In this document: positions 50 through 10,484 of the stretch, piece by piece | Layout: every line of letters starts with the position of its first letter | Position numbering within the stretch: position 1 is the stretch's first letter | Assembly (NCBI GenBank): GCA_963705725.1 | Contig: CAVPKM010000006.1 | Location: forward strand, 1-10,484 | DNA length: 10,484 bases | Source: an uncultured Gammaproteobacteria bacterium | Lineage (GTDB): Bacteria; Pseudomonadota; Gammaproteobacteria; UBA6002 | Direction of reading: 5' to 3' | Notes under the pieces: generated by a model | Seen by the model: only the letters and a program-made list of their open reading frames with translations | Told to the model about the DNA's origin: nothing | Database searches by the model: none | Made by a program: the position numbers and the translations under genes

Positions 50-1993
50 TTATAAACTTGCTTTCACTAAGTTAATTAAACCACCAGCCTTTATTATTTT
101 TACTTGGCGCTCGGATAAATTATGTTTGACAGCAAATGCTTGTTGTTTATTTTTCATTTGAACAAGAAATTCATTTCCCTGTTCCAAAGTATTGATGAGG
201 TTATCAATAAATAAAATTTCATTTATTTCAATTTCGTCGTAGGCATTAGGATCAATAAAGGTAACGGGTAAAATGCCAAAATTAATCAAGTTTTGCCAAT
301 GGATTCGAGCAAAACTTTTTGCAATAACAAGTTTTAAGCCAAGATAACGCGGAGCAATAGCGGCATGTTCACGGCTTGAACCTTGACCATAATTTTCACC
401 AGCAATAATCGTATGACCCGTTTGCTCAGCTATTGCCCTAGCTCGATTAGCATAGGTAGGATCCATTAAATCATAAACAAATTCGCTAATCTTAGGAATA
501 TTGCTACGATAAGGTAGGACTCGAGCGCCAGCTGGCAGAATTTCATCAGTTGAAATATCATTACCCACCTTCAACAAAACCGGTAAAGTTAACGCATTAG
601 GCAGAGAGTCAAAAATCGGTAAAGAATGAATATTGGGTCCTTTAATTAAGGTGACTTGCCTTGCTTGATTTTCATCGATGGGCGAATGTAACATATCATG
701 ATTGATAATTTTTTCACCTGAATGCGTTATTTTAGGATAGGGGAGAGCTAAATCACGAGGGTCGGTAATTTTCCCGGTAAGGGCAGAAGCGGTTGCCGTT
801 TCTGGACTACAGAGAAATACACGATCTTCAGGGGTTCCAGAGCGCCCAGGAAAATTACGCGGAGTGGTTCGTAAACTATTTTTTTCCGTGGCCGGGGCTT
901 GACCCATTCCAATGCAACCATTACAACCTGCTTGGTGGACTCTTGCTCCGGCATGAATCATATCAGCTAGGTAGCCTTCTCTGACGAGTTCTTCAAAAGA
1001 GTTTCGTGAGGTAGGATTGATATCATAAGATACGCCGGTTGGAATTTTTTTGCCCTTGACCATTTCTGCTGAAATTGCAAAATCTCTAAATCCGGGATTG
1101 GCGGATGAACCAATATACGCTTGATAAATAGGTTCTCCGGTTAGTTCTCTTACTTTGACAACGTTATCCGGGTTACTTGGCATCGCAATAAGAGGTTCAA
1201 GCGTTGCTAAGTGGATGATGTCGTGTTTATCATAACTTGCCTCTTCATCTGCCTGAAGCTCACACCAATCTTCTGCCCGACCTTGGTCGATTAAAAATTT
1301 TTTCGTATTTTCATCAGAAGGGAAAACGGTGGTAGTGGCGCCGAGCTCAGCTCCCATATTTGCAATGACATGGCGATCCATCGCTGTTAGCTGCTTTAAG
1401 CCTGAACCATAATATTCTATTATATAGCCTATTCCGCCTTTCACACTATGACGTCGCAACATTTCAAGGATAATATCCTTTGCACTGACCCATTCAGGAA
1501 GGTCTCCTTCTAGCTTTACGCCAAATACTTTTGGCATCCTGACGAAGTAGGGCTTGCCCGCCATAGCAAGTGCCACTTCAAGCCCGCCGGTGCCAATGGC
1601 TAGCATCCCCAAAGAGCCGGCGGCGCAAGTATGACTATCTGATCCAAGTAGCATCTTACCGGGCTTACCAAACGCTTGCATATGCACGGGATGGCTAACG
1701 CCATTGCCTGGACGACTAAACCAAACTCCAAATCGTTGGCAAGCGCTTTGCAAAAAAAGATGATCATCTGGATTTTTATAATCTTCTTGAATCAGGTTAT
1801 GATCAACATATTGAACTGATAACTCTGTTTTAACCCGATCCAATTCCATTGCTTCCAGTTCTAGCATCACTAAAGTGCCCGTTGCATCTTGAGTCAGCGT
1901 TTGATCTACTTTCAAGGCGATTTCTTGCCCTGGTATCATCTCGCCATTTAAAAGATGGGCATGAATCAGTTTTTGTGCAATATTCATCGGCAT
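50..1993 (-). CDS. Aconitate hydratase, short (~650 aa) putative-aconitase type
   Basis: 647-aa ORF with aconitase-family motifs QDATG, DHN, GSDSHT, CNGCIG, RNFPGR and YGQGSSREHAA. AAGGAGG Shine-Dalgarno just upstream of the ATG. 34 bp downstream of fumC on the same strand. Confidence 0.92.
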   Translation of the reverse strand: MPMNIAQKLIHAHLLNGEMIPGQEIALKVDQTLTQDATGTLVMLELEAMELDRVKTELSVQYVDHNLIQEDYKNPDDHLFLQSACQRFGVWFSRPGNGVSHPVHMQAFGKPGKMLLGSDSHTCAAGSLGMLAIGTGGLEVALAMAGKPYFVRMPKVFGVKLEGDLPEWVSAKDIILEMLRRHSVKGGIGYIIEYYGSGLKQLTAMDRHVIANMGAELGATTTVFPSDENTKKFLIDQGRAEDWCELQADEEASYDKHDIIHLATLEPLIAMPSNPDNVVKVRELTGEPIYQAYIGSSANPGFRDFAISAEMVKGKKIPTGVSYDINPTSRNSFEELVREGYLADMIHAGARVHQAGCNGCIGMGQAPATEKNSLRTTPRNFPGRSGTPEDRVFLCSPETATASALTGKITDPRDLALPYPKITHSGEKIINHDMLHSPIDENQARQVTLIKGPNIHSLPIFDSLPNALTLPVLLKVGNDISTDEILPAGARVLPYRSNIPKISEFVYDLMDPTYANRARAIAEQTGHTIIAGENYGQGSSREHAAIAPRYLGLKLVIAKSFARIHWQNLINFGILPVTFIDPNAYDEIEINEILFIDNLINTLEQGNEFLVQMKNKQQAFAVKHNLSERQVKIIKAGGLINLVKASL

Positions 1994-2027: not shown

Positions 2028-3440
2028 CTAGGAAAAATTTTTCTCCTTCGCGAAAGGATGAGCCATTTTTTTAGGTTGCACAGCGTGATCAAATTGTTCA
2101 GAAGTTAAAAAGCCAAGTGCGATGGCTGCGTCTTTCAGCCCAGTCCCTTCTACATAGGCTTTATGGGCAATTTTAGCCGCTTTGTCGTAACCAATGACTG
2201 GATTTAATGCCGTGACCAGCATTAATGAATCGCTCACATAATGATTTATTTTATCGATATTTACCTGAATTCCTTCCACAGCGTATTTTCTAAAACTATG
2301 ACAAGCATCAGTTAAAATTCTAACCGAGTGTAAAAAATTAAAAATCATTACCGGTTTATAGACATTTAACTCAAAATTACCTTGTGATCCAGCAATACTA
2401 ACAGCCGTATCATTACCCAGGACCTGTACACAAACCATGGTCATCGCTTCACATTGTGTGGGATTAACCTTGCCTGGCATAATGGAAGAACCTGGCTCAT
2501 TTTCAGGCAAAATTAATTCGCCTAATCCACACCGAGGACCAGAAGCTAACCAACGTATATCATTAGCAATTTTCATTAACGATGTGGCTAAAGTTTTTAA
2601 TGCACCACTTGCCATCACAATGGCATCGTGGCTGGCAAGTGCAGCAAATTTGTTAGGTGCACTAATAAAATCTATATGGGTTAATCGACTAATTTCATCT
2701 GCAGCCATTTTTGCAAATTGCGGATCCGTATTCAGACCTGTGCCCACTGCTGTCCCGCCCAATGCTAATTCTTTGAGAGTAGGGAGAGTCCCTTCGATAT
2801 AGCGAATATTTAAATTAAGTTGTGCCACATAGCCTGAAAATTCTTGACCAAGGGTGAGCGGGACGGCGTCTTGCAAATGGGTTCGCCCAATTTTGACAAT
2901 ATCCGCAAATGCTTTTTCCTTTTCTTCCAGGGCTTGTTTAAGTGCCCTCACAGCGGGCAGAAGTTGCTCGACTAACTCTGTGACAGCGGCAATGTGCATG
3001 GCTGTTGGAAAAGTATCATTAGAAGACTGGCACATATTCACCTGATCATTGGGATGGATCAGCGCCTTGCTGCCTTTTTCTCCTCCCAATATCTCTGCCG
3101 CTCTATTCGCAATGACTTCATTCACGTTCATGTTTGTTTGAGTACCGCTGCCGGTTTGCCAGACATGTAAAGGAAAATTTTCCTCTAATTTTCCGCTTAT
3201 CACTTCATCGCAGCTGGCAATAATGGCTTTTGCTTTATCTTCCGGAAGTTTGCCAGATTGTTGATTTACCATGGCTGCTGCCTTTTTTAAAATCGCAAAA
3301 GCTTTGATTAATTCTTTTGGCATTAAATCTTGACCGATATTGAAATGCAGTAAGGAGCGCTGTGTTTGTGCTCCCCAATAACGATCAGCAGGCACTTCAA
3401 TTTTACCCATACTATCTGTTTCAACACGCATTTTTGACAT
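2028..3440 (-). CDS. fumC: Class II fumarate hydratase
   Basis: Motifs [38 protein letters not shown] and the fumarate-lyase signature [15 protein letters not shown]. Start moved from 3482 to the ATG at 3440 (MSKMRVE, 470 aa), which has AGAGG 5 nt upstream. Confidence 0.97.
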
Positions 3441-3487
3441 AAAAACCTCTTGATAATTTATATAAAGCACTAAATCCAACATAAAGT

Positions 3488-3525: not shown

Positions 3526-3909
3526 ATGAATTTATCACGCTTTTTAGCAGCTGTCATGGGTTGGTATTTCATCATCATCAGTTTATTAGTGCTTTTGCGC
3601 TATAAAGTTTTTGAGCGAATAGCTAGAGAGCTCTGTCATGTGGAAGCCGCTTGGACATTATCTGGCATGATTATCTTGGTCTTTGGCTTAATCATTGCAG
3701 TGAGTCATAGCTTATGGACACCTGATTGGCGTTTTTTAGTCACCTTAATTGGGTGGATTCTTTTAATTAAGGGGGTAAGTCGCCTTTATTTTCCCACTAT
3801 GACTAAACATCTCACCATACAATGGTTGCAGCGTCGTTATTTGAACCTAATTAGCGCAATACTCTCGTTAGTAATAGGAATATTTTTAATTTATTGCGCG
3901 TATAATTAA
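3526..3909 (+). CDS. Small integral membrane protein of unknown function (about 4 TM helices)
   Basis: 127 aa with four hydrophobic segments, including the HSLW..DWRFLVTLIGW..LIKG stretch. Clear RBS. Its stop codon overlaps the stop of the convergent gene (TTAA 3906-3909). Confidence 0.85.
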   Translation: MNLSRFLAAVMGWYFIIISLLVLLRYKVFERIARELCHVEAAWTLSGMIILVFGLIIAVSHSLWTPDWRFLVTLIGWILLIKGVSRLYFPTMTKHLTIQWLQRRYLNLISAILSLVIGIFLIYCAYN

Positions 3910-5519
3910 TGCTGATATACCTGTAAATTGTTTAGATTAAGATTAATTTCCTCAGTTGAGTTGGAGTAACCGGATCTGCGCCAAAAATTAGATGCTGGCA
4001 CACTCACCATTCTAAATTGATAGGATGGATGGTATGTAGCTGCTTCATGAAAAGCTTTACAAACAAATAAAAGAGAAAATAAAGTGGCATACGACTGGTC
4101 AGAAAATTCATTTCCAACAATTGTGGTAATCATATGAGCAAGAAATGTAATATTGACTCCTAGTGCGGTATAAGATTGATTAAAAAGATAACCATCATTG
4201 TCATGAATTGAACTCACACTATTAAAAAAATTCCTAAGCCTTTCCAGGTGACTGACAACCTGCAAATTACTGAGAGAAACTTGTGCTGTACTGGATGTGA
4301 TGCCAGAAAATTTCTTTTTTAATTTGTTTTTTGCATAAACAAGATTTGCAATGTCGTCAAAGTTAAGATCTTTCAATACGCCATAAAAATTATTCAATGC
4401 CGTATCATCAGCAAACCAGTCAAATATGTCAAAAACATGACATTCTTTTGCCACATTAGCCATCTGTTTTAAAATAGCTTGAGGATTTTCATAATCACCT
4501 AGGCAAACTTGATGATCGATAATTAATGCAGGTGTATTTTCCCAAGCGGGGTGAGCTTGATAAATTCCATTAATCATGGTGAACAATTTATAGGCAGCTA
4601 AATGCTTTTTATTATTATCTCTAATAAAAGAATTACGCTCATGACATCGATAAATTTTTTGAAATGCAGATCGGCATTTTTTAAAATAATAAAAATTTTT
4701 TATAGCTAAATTTTCCAGAAATTTTTTATAAAAATCTTCTTTCATTAAAAAAATTTTGAAGTCCCTATCGTGATAACGATCCATTTCTTGACAGAATAAA
4801 ATCGTGAACATCATTGAATTTTTATGCTCGGCCATATCAAGCATGGAATGAATGTTCATTGATAAAGAAGCAAGGTAGTAATCGATTACCATATCTTCTT
4901 CTCTTCCAAATTTAGATTCACGCCAATGAACTTGCAATTGTTTTAGTGCGTATGAGTATTTATTGAACTGCAGTTTATCCGCCACTAATTGAGATGCGCA
5001 AATAGAATTTGCATTTCTGTAAAGTATTTCTGCTATTTTATGCCTATTTTTTTTGCTTAAGCTGATGACAGTTTCATTTAATAATTCCGCATCATCAATT
5101 TGAGCAAACAATCCACAAAATAATATTTCAAAAGATTCGAATTGCTGATTTTCTTCATAGAAATCTTCAATAAAATTATTATAGATTTCAGCATGATCTG
5201 TATTAAATTGGCAGGAAGTATATTTTTTAATAAAAATTTTTTCATCATCAAAACTATTTTGATCAAAAATGATTGCCTGAACTTGAGTTCGAATCCCATC
5301 TTGAATTGCACGAAGAACAAATTCTTTAGCAGCGAAAATATCGAGATAAATAAAATCTGTTAGATAATAACGAGAAAGTTTAAATTGATATTTAAAACCC
5401 CCTTTGCTTGGTTCATATAAATAATGTAAAGATAATTCTCGATGCTGCCGAGAATAGTTCTCACCTCGTTTTTTTCTTCTACAAATTTCCGCACGAAGTA
5501 TGTTCGTTCTATCTTTCAT
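3906..5519 (-). CDS. Hypothetical protein, candidate secreted effector
   Basis: 537-aa open frame in very AT-rich DNA. AGGTGA RBS (complement of 5526-5531). No family recognised. Basic RRKKR patch near the N-terminus. Divergent from the Wip-like gene. The effector role is an inference. Confidence 0.75.
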   Translation of the reverse strand: MKDRTNILRAEICRRKKRGENYSRQHRELSLHYLYEPSKGGFKYQFKLSRYYLTDFIYLDIFAAKEFVLRAIQDGIRTQVQAIIFDQNSFDDEKIFIKKYTSCQFNTDHAEIYNNFIEDFYEENQQFESFEILFCGLFAQIDDAELLNETVISLSKKNRHKIAEILYRNANSICASQLVADKLQFNKYSYALKQLQVHWRESKFGREEDMVIDYYLASLSMNIHSMLDMAEHKNSMMFTILFCQEMDRYHDRDFKIFLMKEDFYKKFLENLAIKNFYYFKKCRSAFQKIYRCHERNSFIRDNNKKHLAAYKLFTMINGIYQAHPAWENTPALIIDHQVCLGDYENPQAILKQMANVAKECHVFDIFDWFADDTALNNFYGVLKDLNFDDIANLVYAKNKLKKKFSGITSSTAQVSLSNLQVVSHLERLRNFFNSVSSIHDNDGYLFNQSYTALGVNITFLAHMITTIVGNEFSDQSYATLFSLLFVCKAFHEAATYHPSYQFRMVSVPASNFWRRSGYSNSTEEINLNLNNLQVYQH

Positions 5520-5580: not shown

Positions 5581-7119
5581 ATGCTAACCCCTAATATTGA
5601 GTTAATTGAAAAAAAAGTAGACATCTACCAGTTGCCCTCTCGCAATGAGGTGCATGTCCTGGCAGAAGGAGCGCTAATTGCACTTGGCGACTTGCATGCC
5701 AACACCATGAAATTGATCTTCATGTTAATTCTGTTCGGCGTAATAACCAATATGTCTCAGGAAGATTTTAAACAATTAGTTCAGATCTATACAGCTAGGG
5801 CTTTGACAAAATCTTCGATTGAAGCTTTTGAAGCTATCCTAAAAAACAAGAATTTAAATTTTCAACAAAAAATAAAAGTCTTATTAATTGGAGATGAAGT
5901 AGGGGATAGAGGCAAAAATGATGGCTTGACTCTCATCACTTTATTTGAACTTTTTTTAAGAGGCATTGAGCTTGAAATATTACTATCCAACCATGGGATA
6001 GAATTTATTATCGCTTATGAAAAAGGCAAAGAATTTACGCTTTCCCTATTGCAAATTATTCATGGAGGTTCCATGGAAAGATTGAATCAATCCATTCAAT
6101 CTGGTGCGATCTCAAAAGAAAAAGTGTTTGAAATGATTGAAAAGGCTTACAAGCCTAATCTGCGTGTACTTTCTTATTCACTTGATAAAGAAAATAATGC
6201 GATTACTCTCTACAGCCATGCTCCAATTGGATTAGATAATATTGAAGCATTAGCAGCGAAACTGGGTGTAAACTATATTGATACTACCGCTGAAGACCTT
6301 GCTCGAACGATTGACAAAATTAATGCAAAGTTTCAAAACTACGTTAATGCTAATAAAGTGCATACATTATTTGATCAAGCAAAGTTACAAGAGGGTTATC
6401 GTAACATACGGGCAGATTTACGAGACGACCCTTTTTCATTTGTTATGTACAACCGTCGTTATGATTTCCTTAATCGACCGGCCAATCATCATAATTATCG
6501 AGTAAATTTTGTTCACGGACATGATCCAGATGGTTATACAATGGATAATGTTGTTGATCTTGACGACTTTCTAGGAAAAGGACTTAAGTTTAACCAAGGG
6601 ACTTTTGCCGTAATTTACTCACACGTAAATGAAAGACCACTCCAAGAAACAGCAACGAGTTCAAGTTATCCAAACACGTATTTTACTCCTGTTTGGCCTT
6701 TAGCGCTTTCTGAACAGTTTTATTCTTATCAAGCCAATTATAAAAATGGCAGTATCGCTATCTCCTGCCCATCAGATTCAGATCAAGTGAGTAAACTATA
6801 CCAATATTTTAATCATTATCTGCCTGGGTTATTATCCCTTAACCAGGAAGAGAATTCGATTACCGTCAATCCAGTGAAAGCGGGTGTGGGGGGAGTTTCT
6901 CTGGTTGGGGAGGATGAAAATGAAAAATTTGTTATTACTTTTCCAGAAGCTAAATATCGAAATTTTTTCATGTTATTTCTTGGTTTAGATATGGATCCTG
7001 ATAATGCTGATAAAAATTATCAGCAAAGCGGCTATGAAGTAGGAGAGGAATCGCCAAACAAATTGTATCTTAGCCCTCAATTTTTTAACTTACATAAAGG
7101 TAAGCAGCCTTCCCCCTAA
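5581..7119 (+). CDS. Wip-family (WipA/WipB-like) Dot/Icm effector metallophosphatase with an extra C-terminal domain
   Basis: PPP/metallophosphoesterase motifs in order: GDLHAN, IGDEVGDRG, LLSNHG, YSHA, FVHGHD. These variant spellings match the Legionella Wip effector phosphatases as I recall them. Confidence 0.8.
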   Translation: MLTPNIELIEKKVDIYQLPSRNEVHVLAEGALIALGDLHANTMKLIFMLILFGVITNMSQEDFKQLVQIYTARALTKSSIEAFEAILKNKNLNFQQKIKVLLIGDEVGDRGKNDGLTLITLFELFLRGIELEILLSNHGIEFIIAYEKGKEFTLSLLQIIHGGSMERLNQSIQSGAISKEKVFEMIEKAYKPNLRVLSYSLDKENNAITLYSHAPIGLDNIEALAAKLGVNYIDTTAEDLARTIDKINAKFQNYVNANKVHTLFDQAKLQEGYRNIRADLRDDPFSFVMYNRRYDFLNRPANHHNYRVNFVHGHDPDGYTMDNVVDLDDFLGKGLKFNQGTFAVIYSHVNERPLQETATSSSYPNTYFTPVWPLALSEQFYSYQANYKNGSIAISCPSDSDQVSKLYQYFNHYLPGLLSLNQEENSITVNPVKAGVGGVSLVGEDENEKFVITFPEAKYRNFFMLFLGLDMDPDNADKNYQQSGYEVGEESPNKLYLSPQFFNLHKGKQPSP

Positions 7120-7122
7120 TCA

Positions 7123-7131
7123 ACTATAATT
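7123..7131 (+). promoter_or_regulatory. Putative -10 element (ACTATAATT) for iaaA
   Basis: TATAAT at 7125-7130, about 28 nt before the ATG at 7159. GGATGAG possible RBS. Confidence 0.45.
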
Positions 7132-7158
7132 CATGTTTTAACTCTGGATGAGTAAGCA

Positions 7159-8064
7159 ATGAAAGAAAATATTCGAATCATCATACATGGTGGTGCGGGA
7201 ATTATTAACATAGCTGAGGAAAATGATGAGCATGTAAAACGTAACCTAAGAAAATTAAAACAAATTATTGAAGCCAATTATCAAGCCCTGCTTGGTGGTG
7301 CAAGTGCTTTAGACGTTGCCGAACAAGCTGTGATTGAATTAGAAAATGATGAAGGCTTTAATGCCGGGCGCGGAGCAGTATTAAATAGTGATGGGTCAGT
7401 CGAATTAGATGCCGCTATTATGGATGGAAGAAACCGCGGTGCAGGTGCTATCGCGGCAGTTAAACGAGTCAAAAATCCCATTTCTGGGGCGCGGGCTGTC
7501 ATGGAATATAGTCATCATGTCTTGCTAGTTGGTCATAATGCTGACCTGTACTGCGAATCACATCATGTTGAAATGACCCAGACACAATATTTCATTACGG
7601 AAGACAGGCGTCTGCAATTAGAAAAAGCGCAAAGAGAAGGGCATGTCAAAGATATCGATGTCCTGGGCACAGTAGGCGCCGTGGTAAGAGATGTTTACGG
7701 CAATTTAGCGACAGCCACCTCAACCGGTGGCAAAACCAATAAAACGCCGGGGAGAGTGGGAGATTCACCAATTATCGGTGCTGGCACTTGGGCTGATAAT
7801 AGCTGCTGTGCCATTTCTGCAACAGGCGATGGTGAGATGTTCATTAAATCCGTTTTTGCCCATGAAGTTGCCGCAAGGGTTAAGTACAAAGAAGAATTGC
7901 TGTCTGTAGCTTGCAAGCAAATCTTGCAGGAAGTCAAACAGCTAGGGGGCGAGGGGGGATGTATTGGAATTGATAAGGATGGAAATATTGTAATGGAATA
8001 TAACACCTTAGGCATGTACCGCGGCTGGATTGATGAGGTAGGACAGTCTTTTTCTGCTATTTAA
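7159..8064 (+). CDS. iaaA: Isoaspartyl peptidase / L-asparaginase (Ntn-hydrolase, plant-type asparaginase family)
   Basis: Motifs IIIHGGAG, LE...FNAGRG, ELDAAIMDG, G|TVGAV (nucleophile Thr171, codon 7669-7671), ATSTGG, GRVGDSP and SATGDGE. Confidence 0.95.
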   Translation: MKENIRIIIHGGAGIINIAEENDEHVKRNLRKLKQIIEANYQALLGGASALDVAEQAVIELENDEGFNAGRGAVLNSDGSVELDAAIMDGRNRGAGAIAAVKRVKNPISGARAVMEYSHHVLLVGHNADLYCESHHVEMTQTQYFITEDRRLQLEKAQREGHVKDIDVLGTVGAVVRDVYGNLATATSTGGKTNKTPGRVGDSPIIGAGTWADNSCCAISATGDGEMFIKSVFAHEVAARVKYKEELLSVACKQILQEVKQLGGEGGCIGIDKDGNIVMEYNTLGMYRGWIDEVGQSFSAI

Positions 8065-8106
8065 CCTACCTACATCCCAGCCTCCGCACTTAATTAAAAA
8101 TTGTAC
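7543..8106. repeat. Direct repeat copy 1 (564 bp), start of the 1614-bp duplication unit
   Basis: Matches 9157-9720 with no mismatch found by eye. ORF-track translations in three frames are identical at offset 1614. Confidence 0.95.
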
Positions 8107-9011
8107 CCTACAGATTTAAAACAGTGATCAGAAATTTCCCCTATCACTTCATTTGGTAATCCTAAATCCTCTTTAGCTGTAAAAAAAGTAAAACAGATCT
8201 GACGTAAATCTTGCAGCTCTTTGGCTTTTTGTTTCAACTGATCGATTACTTCCTGAATAGGTCGATCTAAGAACTTTATTTGCAGCTGATCGCAAACGTT
8301 AATAAGGTAATTAATTTTAATTGGATCAGTTAAATAATGATTGGCATGCTGAATTTTAGCATTGCGATTTTTGTAGGCATATAACTGATAACCTGAAAAG
8401 CCTAGATAAGTGACTAAAAGTATTGAAGGAAGAATTGGTAAAAAATATTTTTCAAACTCTTTTATAACATATTCAGCGGAATCTTTCAATTCTAAAACTT
8501 TTGCCAATTCAGATTTGAGAATATCATCATGAGTATTATTTATTCCATTAAATAACTGACATAATTCTTCATTTATGTCGTGGCAAGCTTCCGAAAAATT
8601 CCCAAGAAAATCAAGTGAACATCTTTCAGACATGGAGAAAGAATTTAATGGAGGACACCCTGCTGAAATATAATTAGCTTGATGCACCAAGAGAGAAGCG
8701 TGAGCGGTAGTAGACTTTAGAGAAAACAATAAATTGGCTATCTCAATTGTGCTCTGCACAGCAGCTAACGCCGTATAGGCGTTCTTAGTATAATTTCGCA
8801 AAGTGTGATAGCCAATATAGCTAGCAGGAATTGAAATAATAAAATTGAATGCTTGTAATAGAAGGGAAGAATAATACTTTTGTTTTGCTTTAATCATCTC
8901 TTTCCTTGCTTCTTCCAAAATGTCAATACACTTGATAATTTTTTCATAGAGAAAAGCATTACTATTGCGATGGGCTTGCGATTTAAAAATAATTTCTGAC
9001 GGATTATTCAT
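8094..9011 (-). CDS. Two-TM hypothetical membrane protein, paralog 1 (candidate effector)
   Basis: 305 aa. AGGTG RBS upstream. Hydrophobic segments SLLLQAFNFIISIPASYIGY and YFLPILPSILLVTYLGFSGYQLY flank a loop with four Cys. Homologous to the ORF ending at 9722. Confidence 0.85.
   Translation of the reverse strand: MNNPSEIIFKSQAHRNSNAFLYEKIIKCIDILEEARKEMIKAKQKYYSSLLLQAFNFIISIPASYIGYHTLRNYTKNAYTALAAVQSTIEIANLLFSLKSTTAHASLLVHQANYISAGCPPLNSFSMSERCSLDFLGNFSEACHDINEELCQLFNGINNTHDDILKSELAKVLELKDSAEYVIKEFEKYFLPILPSILLVTYLGFSGYQLYAYKNRNAKIQHANHYLTDPIKINYLINVCDQLQIKFLDRPIQEVIDQLKQKAKELQDLRQICFTFFTAKEDLGLPNEVIGEISDHCFKSVGYNF
8139..8393. repeat. Near-identical block shared by the two paralogs (partner 9752-10006)
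   Basis: 255 bp with two mismatches (8203/9816 and 8330/9943), both non-synonymous (R/H and T/S). Confidence 0.9.
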
Positions 9012-9108
9012 ACCTGCACCTATATCATAAGTTAGTAAAAATATTCTTATATCATGTAATAAAAAATATGTAATTATATTTGGGTATCTTTTTTTGATAA
9101 TTTACGAT

Positions 9109-9141
9109 GTTAATAATTGTTTAATATTTTCTAAGTAGACT
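9109..9141 (+). promoter_or_regulatory. PmrA-like binding box plus -10 element
   Basis: gTTAATaaT-tg-tTTAATatT (9109-9128) versus the Legionella/Coxiella PmrA consensus cTTAATatT-N2-cTTAATatT, followed after 7 nt by TAGACT (9136-9141). The AT-rich background lowers specificity. Confidence 0.6.
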
Positions 9142-9156
9142 TAAAAATTCAGGGCC

Positions 9157-9678
9157 GACCTGTACTGCGAATCACATCATGTTGAAATGACCCAGACACA
9201 ATATTTCATTACGGAAGACAGGCGTCTGCAATTAGAAAAAGCGCAAAGAGAAGGGCATGTCAAAGATATCGATGTCCTGGGCACAGTAGGCGCCGTGGTA
9301 AGAGATGTTTACGGCAATTTAGCGACAGCCACCTCAACCGGTGGCAAAACCAATAAAACGCCGGGGAGAGTGGGAGATTCACCAATTATCGGTGCTGGCA
9401 CTTGGGCTGATAATAGCTGCTGTGCCATTTCTGCAACAGGCGATGGTGAGATGTTCATTAAATCCGTTTTTGCCCATGAAGTTGCCGCAAGGGTTAAGTA
9501 CAAAGAAGAATTGCTGTCTGTAGCTTGCAAGCAAATCTTGCAGGAAGTCAAACAGCTAGGGGGCGAGGGGGGATGTATTGGAATTGATAAGGATGGAAAT
9601 ATTGTAATGGAATATAACACCTTAGGCATGTACCGCGGCTGGATTGATGAGGTAGGACAGTCTTTTTCTGCTATTTAA
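9157..9678 (+). pseudogene. iaaA: 5'-truncated duplicate of iaaA (end of alpha subunit, linker and complete beta subunit)
   Basis: Lacks the first 128 codons. In-frame TAA at 9142-9144 upstream. A 163-aa ORF from ATG 9187 is possible but has no clear RBS. Confidence 0.85.
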
Positions 9679-9720
9679 CCTACCTACATCCCAGCCTCCG
9701 CACTTAATTAAAAATTGTAC
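9157..9720. repeat. Direct repeat copy 2 (564 bp)
   Basis: Identical by eye to 7543-8106. The junction reads GCcGACC versus GCtGACC in copy 1. Confidence 0.95.
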
Positions 9721-9721
9721 T

Positions 9722-10484
9722 CTACAAGTTTAAAACAGGATCAAGAATTTTCCCTATCACTTCATTTGGTAATCCTAAATCCTCTTTAGCTGTAAAAAAA
9801 GTAAAACAGATCTGATGTAAATCTTGCAGCTCTTTGGCTTTTTGTTTCAACTGATCGATTACTTCCTGAATAGGTCGATCTAAGAACTTTATTTGCAGCT
9901 GATCGCAAACGTTAATAAGGTAATTAATTTTAATTGGATCAGATAAATAATGATTGGCATGCTGAATTTTAGCATTGCGATTTTTGTAGGCATATAACTG
10001 ATAACCCCAATAGACAAGATTACAGGTTAAAAGTAATGAAGGAATAGATAAATAATTTTCAGAGGTTTGTAAATTAGATTCATAGGAATCTTCCACTTTT
10101 AAACCTATTGCCAATTCAGATTTGGCAATATCGATAGCATTTTTTTCATTAAATAACTGACATAGTTGTTCATTTATGTCGTGGCAAGCTTCCGAAAAAT
10201 TCTCATTTATAAGAAAATCGAGTGAACATCTTTCAGACATTGAGAAAATATCTAATGGAGGACACCCTGCTGAGATATATTTAGCTTGTTGCGACAAGAG
10301 CAAATTGTGAATGACAGAAAACCTTAAAGAATGCAATACATTGGTTATATCTGTAATCCTGCTTTGCACATGAGCTAACTCCATAGAGTAGTCCTTAGTA
10401 AAATAATCCCGCAAAACTTGATTGACAATATAGCTAGCAGGACAATAATCCCGCAAAACTTGATTGACAATATAGCTAGCAGGA
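9722..10484 (-). CDS. Two-TM hypothetical membrane protein, paralog 2 (5' end outside the window)
   Basis: The frame stays open to the window edge, so the TTG start at 10456 is an internal Leu codon. Aligns with paralog 1 from PASYI onward. A 1-bp indel gives it a different C-terminal tip. Confidence 0.85.
   Translation of the reverse strand, partial: PASYIVNQVLRDYCPASYIVNQVLRDYFTKDYSMELAHVQSRITDITNVLHSLRFSVIHNLLLSQQAKYISAGCPPLDIFSMSERCSLDFLINENFSEACHDINEQLCQLFNEKNAIDIAKSELAIGLKVEDSYESNLQTSENYLSIPSLLLTCNLVYWGYQLYAYKNRNAKIQHANHYLSDPIKINYLINVCDQLQIKFLDRPIQEVIDQLKQKAKELQDLHQICFTFFTAKEDLGLPNEVIGKILDPVLNL
10402..10484. repeat. 42-bp in-frame tandem repeat (at least 2 copies, cut by the window end)
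   Basis: AATAATCCCGCAAAACTTGATTGACAATATAGCTAGCAGGAC at 10402-10443, repeated exactly from 10444 to the end (41 bp). Encodes PASYIVNQVLRDY(C/F). Confidence 0.92.

Follow-up and report, generated by a model that had tools for sequence, protein, structure and literature searches.

A head-to-tail repeat beside iaaA in an uncultured gammaproteobacterium may stack two divergent versions of an orphan gene

Diversity-generating retroelements (DGRs) combine a reverse transcriptase (RT) with template and variable repeats that differ at template adenines. In cassette antigenic variation (Neisseria pilE/pilS, Borrelia vlsE, Anaplasma msp2), one expression site is accompanied by many promoter-less partial cassettes, while Helicobacter pylori babA/babB and Neisseria opa are examples of gene conversion between paralogs. 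Displacement arrays of the Rhs/contact-dependent inhibition (CDI) type are reportedly the subject of work by Jackson et al. in 2009 and Koskiniemi et al. in 2014. For Rhs/CDI/type VI secretion system (T6SS) effector-immunity arrays, an excerpt of PMC5361080 describes a topology of full gene, new module, orphaned 3′ fragment and old module, reached by homology-facilitated illegitimate recombination. Here we analyse contig CAVPKM010000006.1 of an uncultured gammaproteobacterium (assembly GCA_963705725.1), the entire 10484 bp of which form our window. It contains the same topology. iaaA, an Asparaginase_2 gene, is followed by a gene of no recognised family, which we call X1; an orphaned copy of the iaaA 3′ part comes next, and this precedes X2, a divergent version of X1 whose frame is open to the contig end (Table 1).

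The locus is a direct repeat, head to tail and in the same orientation, with a unit of 1614 bp (spacing of 1614/1613 bp in the repeat search). An initial annotation of the sequence had described it as an array; the head-to-tail repetition is there, but only the first unit is complete in the contig, and of the second 1328 bp are present. Column-by-column alignment of both copies reproduced exactly the mosaic identity profile reported in that annotation. Positions 7543-8106 equal 9157-9720 over 564 columns, with 0 mismatches and 0 gaps. The adjoining 32 columns (8107-8138) contain 6 substitutions and one 1-bp indel, and the following 255 (8139-8393, X codons 207-291) contain 2 differences, at 8203 and 8330, both non-synonymous. 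The variable part, 8394-8829 compared with 10007-10442 (X1 amino acids 62-206), spans 449 columns with 83 mismatches and 26 gap columns (~76% identity); its indels are in frame in the codon alignment.

The first copy of the identical segment opens on the first base of iaaA codon 129 and comprises codons 129-301, the stop codon and a 42-bp spacer, and also takes in the final 13 bp of X1. The 32-bp block encodes the extreme C terminus of X; because of its 1-bp indel, X1 and X2 finish in different reading frames, at 8094 and 9722, respectively. At the junction 9156|9157 (feature 9154-9159), the X1 upstream region abuts iaaA codon 129, and the flank left of the join has only 2 nt (GC) in common with the sequence before 7543.

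The repeat has two ages. Synonymous divergence (dS) in the variable part (141 aligned codons) is 0.13-0.16 by four methods (0.13-0.17 throughout its length), and the conserved Cys core within it has the same dS (0.12-0.17) as the rest. No synonymous site differs among 49.7 in X codons 207-291, nor among 116.7 in the iaaA piece. The iaaA piece and the X C-terminus together thus show synonymous differences at 0/166.4 sites, against 12/90.3 in the variable part; at the variable-part rate, ~22 would be expected in the 166.4 sites (P = 5e-11). The divergence of the 564-bp segment is < 0.0053 (95% upper bound), at least about 25-fold below that of the variable part. Because of this synonymous contrast, a single duplication with uniform decay is impossible, as the initial annotation had argued, and recombination of some kind is needed, whether conversion or the integration or replacement of a divergent allele. 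The test has the same outcome for conversion, a young partial copy or an imported allele.

Within the variable part, the loops flanking the Cys core (amino acids 62-110 and 156-206) have a ratio of non-synonymous to synonymous divergence (dN/dS) of 2.3-3.5 by NG86, LWL85, YN00 and maximum likelihood (ML), whereas the Cys core itself has a dN/dS of 0.33-0.46. The loops depart from neutrality on NG86 counts (Fisher P = 0.002). Misalignment is an unlikely cause of the high loop dN/dS, because loop dS is low. Substitutions show a symmetrical spectrum, with A as the mismatched base in 23/83 cases for X1 and in 27/83 for X2, and with 37 transitions and 46 transversions.

As in a DGR, variation is confined to part of the gene while the rest is constant. 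DGR-type mutagenesis was nevertheless rejected, given that there is no adenine bias, that indels are present, that dS of 0.15 is common to the conserved core and that no RT domain occurs in the 8 open reading frames (ORFs) of the 10.5-kb window. Scans of these ORFs with Pfam and NCBIfam gave no recombinase domain either, in agreement with the initial observation that no transposase, integrase or RT is visible. The window also contains 0 inverted repeats of at least 20 nt, 0 tRNAs and 0 Rfam matches. Site-specific recombination of the integron, shufflon or invertase kind was rejected for the window, as it has no recombinase, inverted repeats, tRNA or Rfam integration-site mark. With none of these elements in the window, general recombination is the default.

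We tentatively favour the explanation that the repeat is real, that ordinary recombination made its two head-to-tail copies and that its junction is young, two divergent versions of X having been stacked beside iaaA. A very close relative of the host would have donated DNA with iaaA, X1 and the X1 upstream region, which entered by homologous recombination inside iaaA and by an illegitimate join at 9156|7543. X2 and the iaaA 3′ half already present in the host would thereby have been pushed one unit downstream, giving a "displacement" topology. An equivalent route in two steps would be a recent tandem duplication, after which one copy had its variable part replaced by another allele. The orphaned iaaA piece would be a passive remnant that marks where the breakpoint fell, and would be identical to its counterpart since donor and recipient would have been near-identical in housekeeping DNA. 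The X alleles would differ because their exposed loops would be under diversifying selection, with old alleles persisting in the population. We infer the order of these events, the foreign origin of one copy and the role of X. The initial suggestion that the iaaA fragment might be used to integrate divergent alleles agrees with this model.

A young junction is suggested by the join itself, where identity reaches the first base with no decayed edge and only 2 nt are shared on the left. RecA-dependent conversion tracts need flanking homology, and an old junction should show a diverged rim. The proposed route, anchored by homology on one side and joined illegitimately on the opposite side, is the one given for Rhs/CDI/T6SS arrays in the excerpted text of PMC5361080. 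In those arrays the displaced 3′ fragment is the variable toxin end, whereas the iaaA 3′ halves are identical here (0/564). iaaA, moreover, is not a toxin gene but encodes a housekeeping enzyme of the N-terminal nucleophile (Ntn) hydrolase type (Asparaginase_2), PADLOC gave 0 matches for any of the 5 proteins scanned, and only two modules are visible. X is convergent with iaaA, and immunity genes are not usually so arranged.

The two-age mosaic fits equally well with older tandem paralogs, in which the unit or X alone was duplicated (dS ~0.15), the promoter-distal ~850 bp were later homogenised by conversion or unequal exchange, and selection kept the loops different. We regard this as possible, if rather unlikely. 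Conversion of tandem bacterial paralogs likewise leaves long identical tracts beside diverged, selected segments in neighbouring copies, and it is commonplace (Santoyo and Romero 2005, cited in an excerpt of PMC4209131; see also PMC12046097). Neither visible X ORF is disrupted, and purifying selection acts on the Cys core (omega 0.33-0.46), as expected for maintained paralogs. Among the 10 papers listed of 14 with the relevant terms, no title or abstract describes gene conversion between effector paralogs of Legionella at iaaA. The identical tract here differs from those of converted paralogs, however, in that it leaves the gene, enters a housekeeping-gene fragment and reaches a non-homologous junction; identity extends to the homology edge at 7543, the last place to expect conversion. 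The 7 differences of the 32-bp block, which has 564 near-identical bases on one side and 255 on the other, would mark an unconverted island inside the tract. Conversion needs at least two tracts or patchy repair to leave it, whereas under stacking it is simply allelic. Older paralogs require more events, and the stacking model the fewest, for identical arms, edge identity and the 32-bp island.

An identical housekeeping flank beside a hypervariable gene also looks like alleles of two strains. X1 and X2 could be alleles of two co-assembled strains brought together at a chimeric junction, or 564-bp copies that differ could have been collapsed to a consensus. A 564-bp exact repeat is difficult for short-read assemblers; the contig is short, and every window protein looked up occurs on it alone. 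Its end coincides exactly with that of 2.0 perfect copies of a 42-bp unit, as in a repeat-induced break where an assembler struggles with repeats. An assembly artefact is nonetheless unlikely in our view. The junction has no shared k-mer (the 2 nt only), so sequence spanning it must have existed, and an artefact would take a double coincidence, in that strains were mixed and a chimera happened to fall into seamless head-to-tail order. The isolated single-base differences at 8203 and 8330 stayed distinct within the 255-bp block, which argues against wholesale collapse.

In its strongest form, the proposal of the initial annotation would be a dedicated diversification locus, with iaaA fragments as the constant homology arms of an expandable cassette array that switches or adds X variants. 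The topology does resemble the orphan-module arrays of polymorphic toxin/immunity loci, as far as the excerpt describes them. Loop dN/dS exceeds 1, and the contig stops inside unit 2, which leaves space for more units. As in cassette antigenic variation, conserved segments surround variable ones and variation lies in putatively exposed loops. Only two units are visible, however, with no recombinase, RT, invertase site or inverted repeat in the window and with a symmetrical substitution spectrum. Both copies of X are apparently whole genes and no silent cassettes are visible: X1 carries its own promoter-like site (a consensus match), and X2 is open over 253 visible codons, unlike a silent partial cassette, with its 5′ end beyond the contig. 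We consider a dedicated locus very improbable, and neither the homology-arm nor the expandable-array part of the proposal finds support. The position of the iaaA fragment is adequately explained by chance placement of a breakpoint, and any 564-bp direct repeat supports RecA-type exchange. Once formed, the 564-bp (effectively 851-bp) repeat would permit unequal exchange of this type, with copy loss, copy gain and hybrid genes as a side effect rather than by design. As unequal exchange follows from the repeat structure, it is no evidence that the locus exists for diversification.

A related idea, which we consider doubtful and distinctly unlikely, is that iaaA is a recurrent landing pad, where successive one-sided recombinations stack new X alleles and push older ones downstream behind orphaned iaaA 3′ pieces. 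If true, the locus would be a reservoir of exposed-loop protein variants in an uncultured Dot/Icm-bearing bacterium, and would apply the displacement logic of toxin-immunity arrays to a non-toxin gene with a housekeeping anchor.

Several points weigh against the stacking of two alleles as we have set it out. Both the junction and the perfect identity depend on the assembler, coming from one contig and the assembly alone. The argument from the undecayed edge is numerically weak, since only ~2-4 differences are expected in the outer 30 bp. The loop boundaries were picked post hoc, after viewing the alignment, and over the variable part as a whole omega reaches 1.7-2.0 (P = 0.057). The membrane and effector labels discussed below for X come solely from weak hydropathy and gene neighbourhood. 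A genome-contig scan with the iaaA protein, a query perhaps ill-suited to this lineage, gave 8 loci, 43-50% identical, in metagenome-assembled genomes (MAGs) of unrelated phyla (Planctomycetota, Gemmatimonadota and Acidobacteriota). None was informative, and the scan gave no related genome, hence no single-copy "before" state or donor allele.

Provided that the junction is real, the locus cleanly records the natural gain of a second, divergent copy by a fast-evolving gene, and its very young repeat arm makes a datable contrast with an older core under positive selection. The routes considered here, tandem duplication, allelic replacement, one-sided illegitimate integration and gene conversion, are all known, and the locus reveals no new diversification mechanism.

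The family to which X belongs is a new one of orphan proteins, of which three members are known; it is marked by a conserved C-terminal domain and by loops with dN/dS > 1 on either side of a Cys core. In X1 the Cys core occupies amino acids 111-155, a hydrophobic segment ~190-208 and the conserved C-terminal domain 207-291. The N-terminal ~60 codons of X2 and its promoter lie beyond the contig; over 238 aligned positions the two proteins share 70.6% identity. A word-indexed search of 5.8 billion proteins returned X1 itself alone among 1234 candidates. HMMER, run in full against 1.84 billion representatives, added to X1 itself a single partial metagenome protein of 218 aa, P0002 (E = 3.4e-7, matching X1 194-293), which has the hydrophobic segment and the C-terminal helical domain in common with X. 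A profile of these three members found no further relatives among 4189 candidates.

Family and structure databases added little. In Pfam, X has just a sub-threshold match to Spectrin_Dys-1 (18 bits vs 27.6) and in NCBIfam nothing; PHROGs gave X1 one weak match of unknown function (E = 0.001) and the other 4 proteins none. A profile search of the PDB with X returned nothing below E = 0.36, and the ESM Atlas had no usable match for whole X1 or for residues 186-305. X1 is predicted to be all-helical, although the AlphaFold2 model built on a 3-row alignment (mean predicted local distance difference test score, pLDDT, 37.4; predicted template modelling score, pTM, 0.28) was too poor for a fold search. 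A plasmid collection contained no tblastn match to X1 and just 6 weak blastn matches to iaaA.

The description of X as a membrane protein in the initial annotation is weakly founded. The hydrophobic segment is conserved in position in 3/3 members, but its 19-residue Kyte-Doolittle means are 1.52 (X1), 1.01 (X2) and 1.82 (P0002), whereas a clear membrane protein of this window scores 2.35-2.56. A basic stretch, KNRNAK, comes after the segment. The hydropathy weakly suggests at most one conserved membrane segment in X. Our guess would be a membrane-anchored protein with the Cys-containing loop on the far side and the conserved C-terminal domain in the cytoplasm.

The gene upstream of iaaA encodes a Wip-family protein, with matches to NCBIfam T4SS_Wip (337 bits, cut-off 300) and Pfam WipA_Phos (252.8 bits). 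PDB matches range from 4e-47 to 2e-42 and include WipB (5nny, E = 4.4e-47) and WipA (5y9o, E = 2.3e-46). The phosphatase-domain match does not extend to the C-terminal ~170 residues of the protein. FumC has at most 81% identity to anything in the protein collection, the best named relatives being a Gammaproteobacteria MAG (73%) and a Legionellales MAG (71%). The FumC relatives and the Wip gene, the latter being the main clue to the kind of organism, therefore indicate an uncultured Legionellales-like bacterium without a sequenced close relative, rather than any named pathogen.

As is seen for Legionella-type Dot/Icm effector genes, X adjoins a Wip-family gene, has low GC (0.325-0.331, vs 0.41-0.44 for the housekeeping genes) and is without relatives outside its lineage; unlike them, it is matched by no effector family. 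Low GC, lineage restriction and effector neighbours are among the predictors of Legionella effectors in an excerpt of PMC2701608. On these features, X is possibly a candidate Dot/Icm substrate, nothing more. Given its position next to a Wip-type effector gene in a Legionellales-like bacterium, the X family is a reasonable candidate for a host- or competitor-facing factor.

Table 1 Genes and repeat elements of the window, with coordinates
Feature	Position	Strand	Basis
Aconitate hydratase	50-1993	-	ORF call; Pfam/NCBIfam
Class II fumarate hydratase (fumC)	2028-3482	-	ORF call; Pfam/NCBIfam
127-aa strongly hydrophobic protein	3526-3909	+	ORF call, family scans, hydropathy
537-aa ORF without family, GC 0.311	3906-5519	-	ORF call, family scans, GC
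Wip-family Dot/Icm effector homologue	5581-7119	+	NCBIfam, Pfam, PDB matches
iaaA (Asparaginase_2 gene), full-length isoaspartyl peptidase/L-asparaginase, 301 aa	7159-8064	+	Pfam, NCBIfam
X1, 305 aa	8094-9011	-	ORF call; no family above cut-off
AT-rich region upstream of X1, inside repeat unit	9012-9156		Promoter-like site for X1
Second copy of iaaA 3′ part	9157-9678	+	Identical to first copy
Copy 2 of 564-bp segment: orphaned iaaA 3′ fragment (9157-9678) plus spacer	9157-9720		Identical alignment
X2, frame open to contig end	9722-10483	-	ORF call; 253 codons visible

The intact iaaA product matches Pfam Asparaginase_2 with 319.8 bits over profile positions 2-300 of 309, and the NCBIfam beta-aspartyl-peptidase equivalog with 268.8 bits, under its cut-off of 567. 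Its GTVGAV motif places the Thr at residue 171, which we take to be the nucleophile. The orphaned piece retains an ATG-initiated ORF of 163 aa (9187-9678, plus strand) that covers the whole beta-subunit part, including the GTVGAV Thr, and lacks most of the alpha subunit. The gene caller deposited it as protein P0004, which clusters with the 301-aa protein of the same contig. With most of the alpha subunit missing, the fragment is probably inactive.

iaaA and X1 are convergent, with 29 bp between their stop codons (8064-8094). No terminator-like hairpin lies between them (0 sites in 7000-10484, shuffle mean 2.8), and their transcripts may overlap. The promoter-like site for X1 runs from 9100 to 9073 on the minus strand and matches the consensus at 10/12 positions, although 12 such sites occur in 7000-10484 against 11.0 expected. 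In the same upstream region, a direct repeat at 9110-9128 (plus strand) resembles, with 1 mismatch, a presumed consensus of the PmrA box in promoters of Legionella effector genes. The chance expectation for a match is 0.12 per window, and at least 1 was found in 20/200 shuffles. The repeat is directed to the right, towards the orphaned iaaA fragment and not towards X1; given this orientation, it may belong to a gene originally to the right of X.

The last 83 bp of the contig (10402-10484) consist of the 2.0 copies of the 42-bp unit, with 100% matches. If real, this tandem repeat is an in-frame 14-aa duplication in X2 of a sequence present as a single copy in X1; a break or loop of the contig caused by the repeat is just as plausible.

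Among the remaining genes, the 537-aa ORF lies back to back with the Wip-family gene and has the lowest GC in the window. It matches no family in Pfam, NCBIfam, PADLOC or PHROGs and is perhaps a further effector candidate restricted to the lineage. For fumC, the longest ORF (484 aa) begins ~17-20 codons (3432-3482, minus strand) ahead of the model-matched region; TIGR00979 aligns from residue 18, and relatives are ~463-470 aa long. As the family models match later and relatives are shorter, the true fumC start is probably the downstream ATG.

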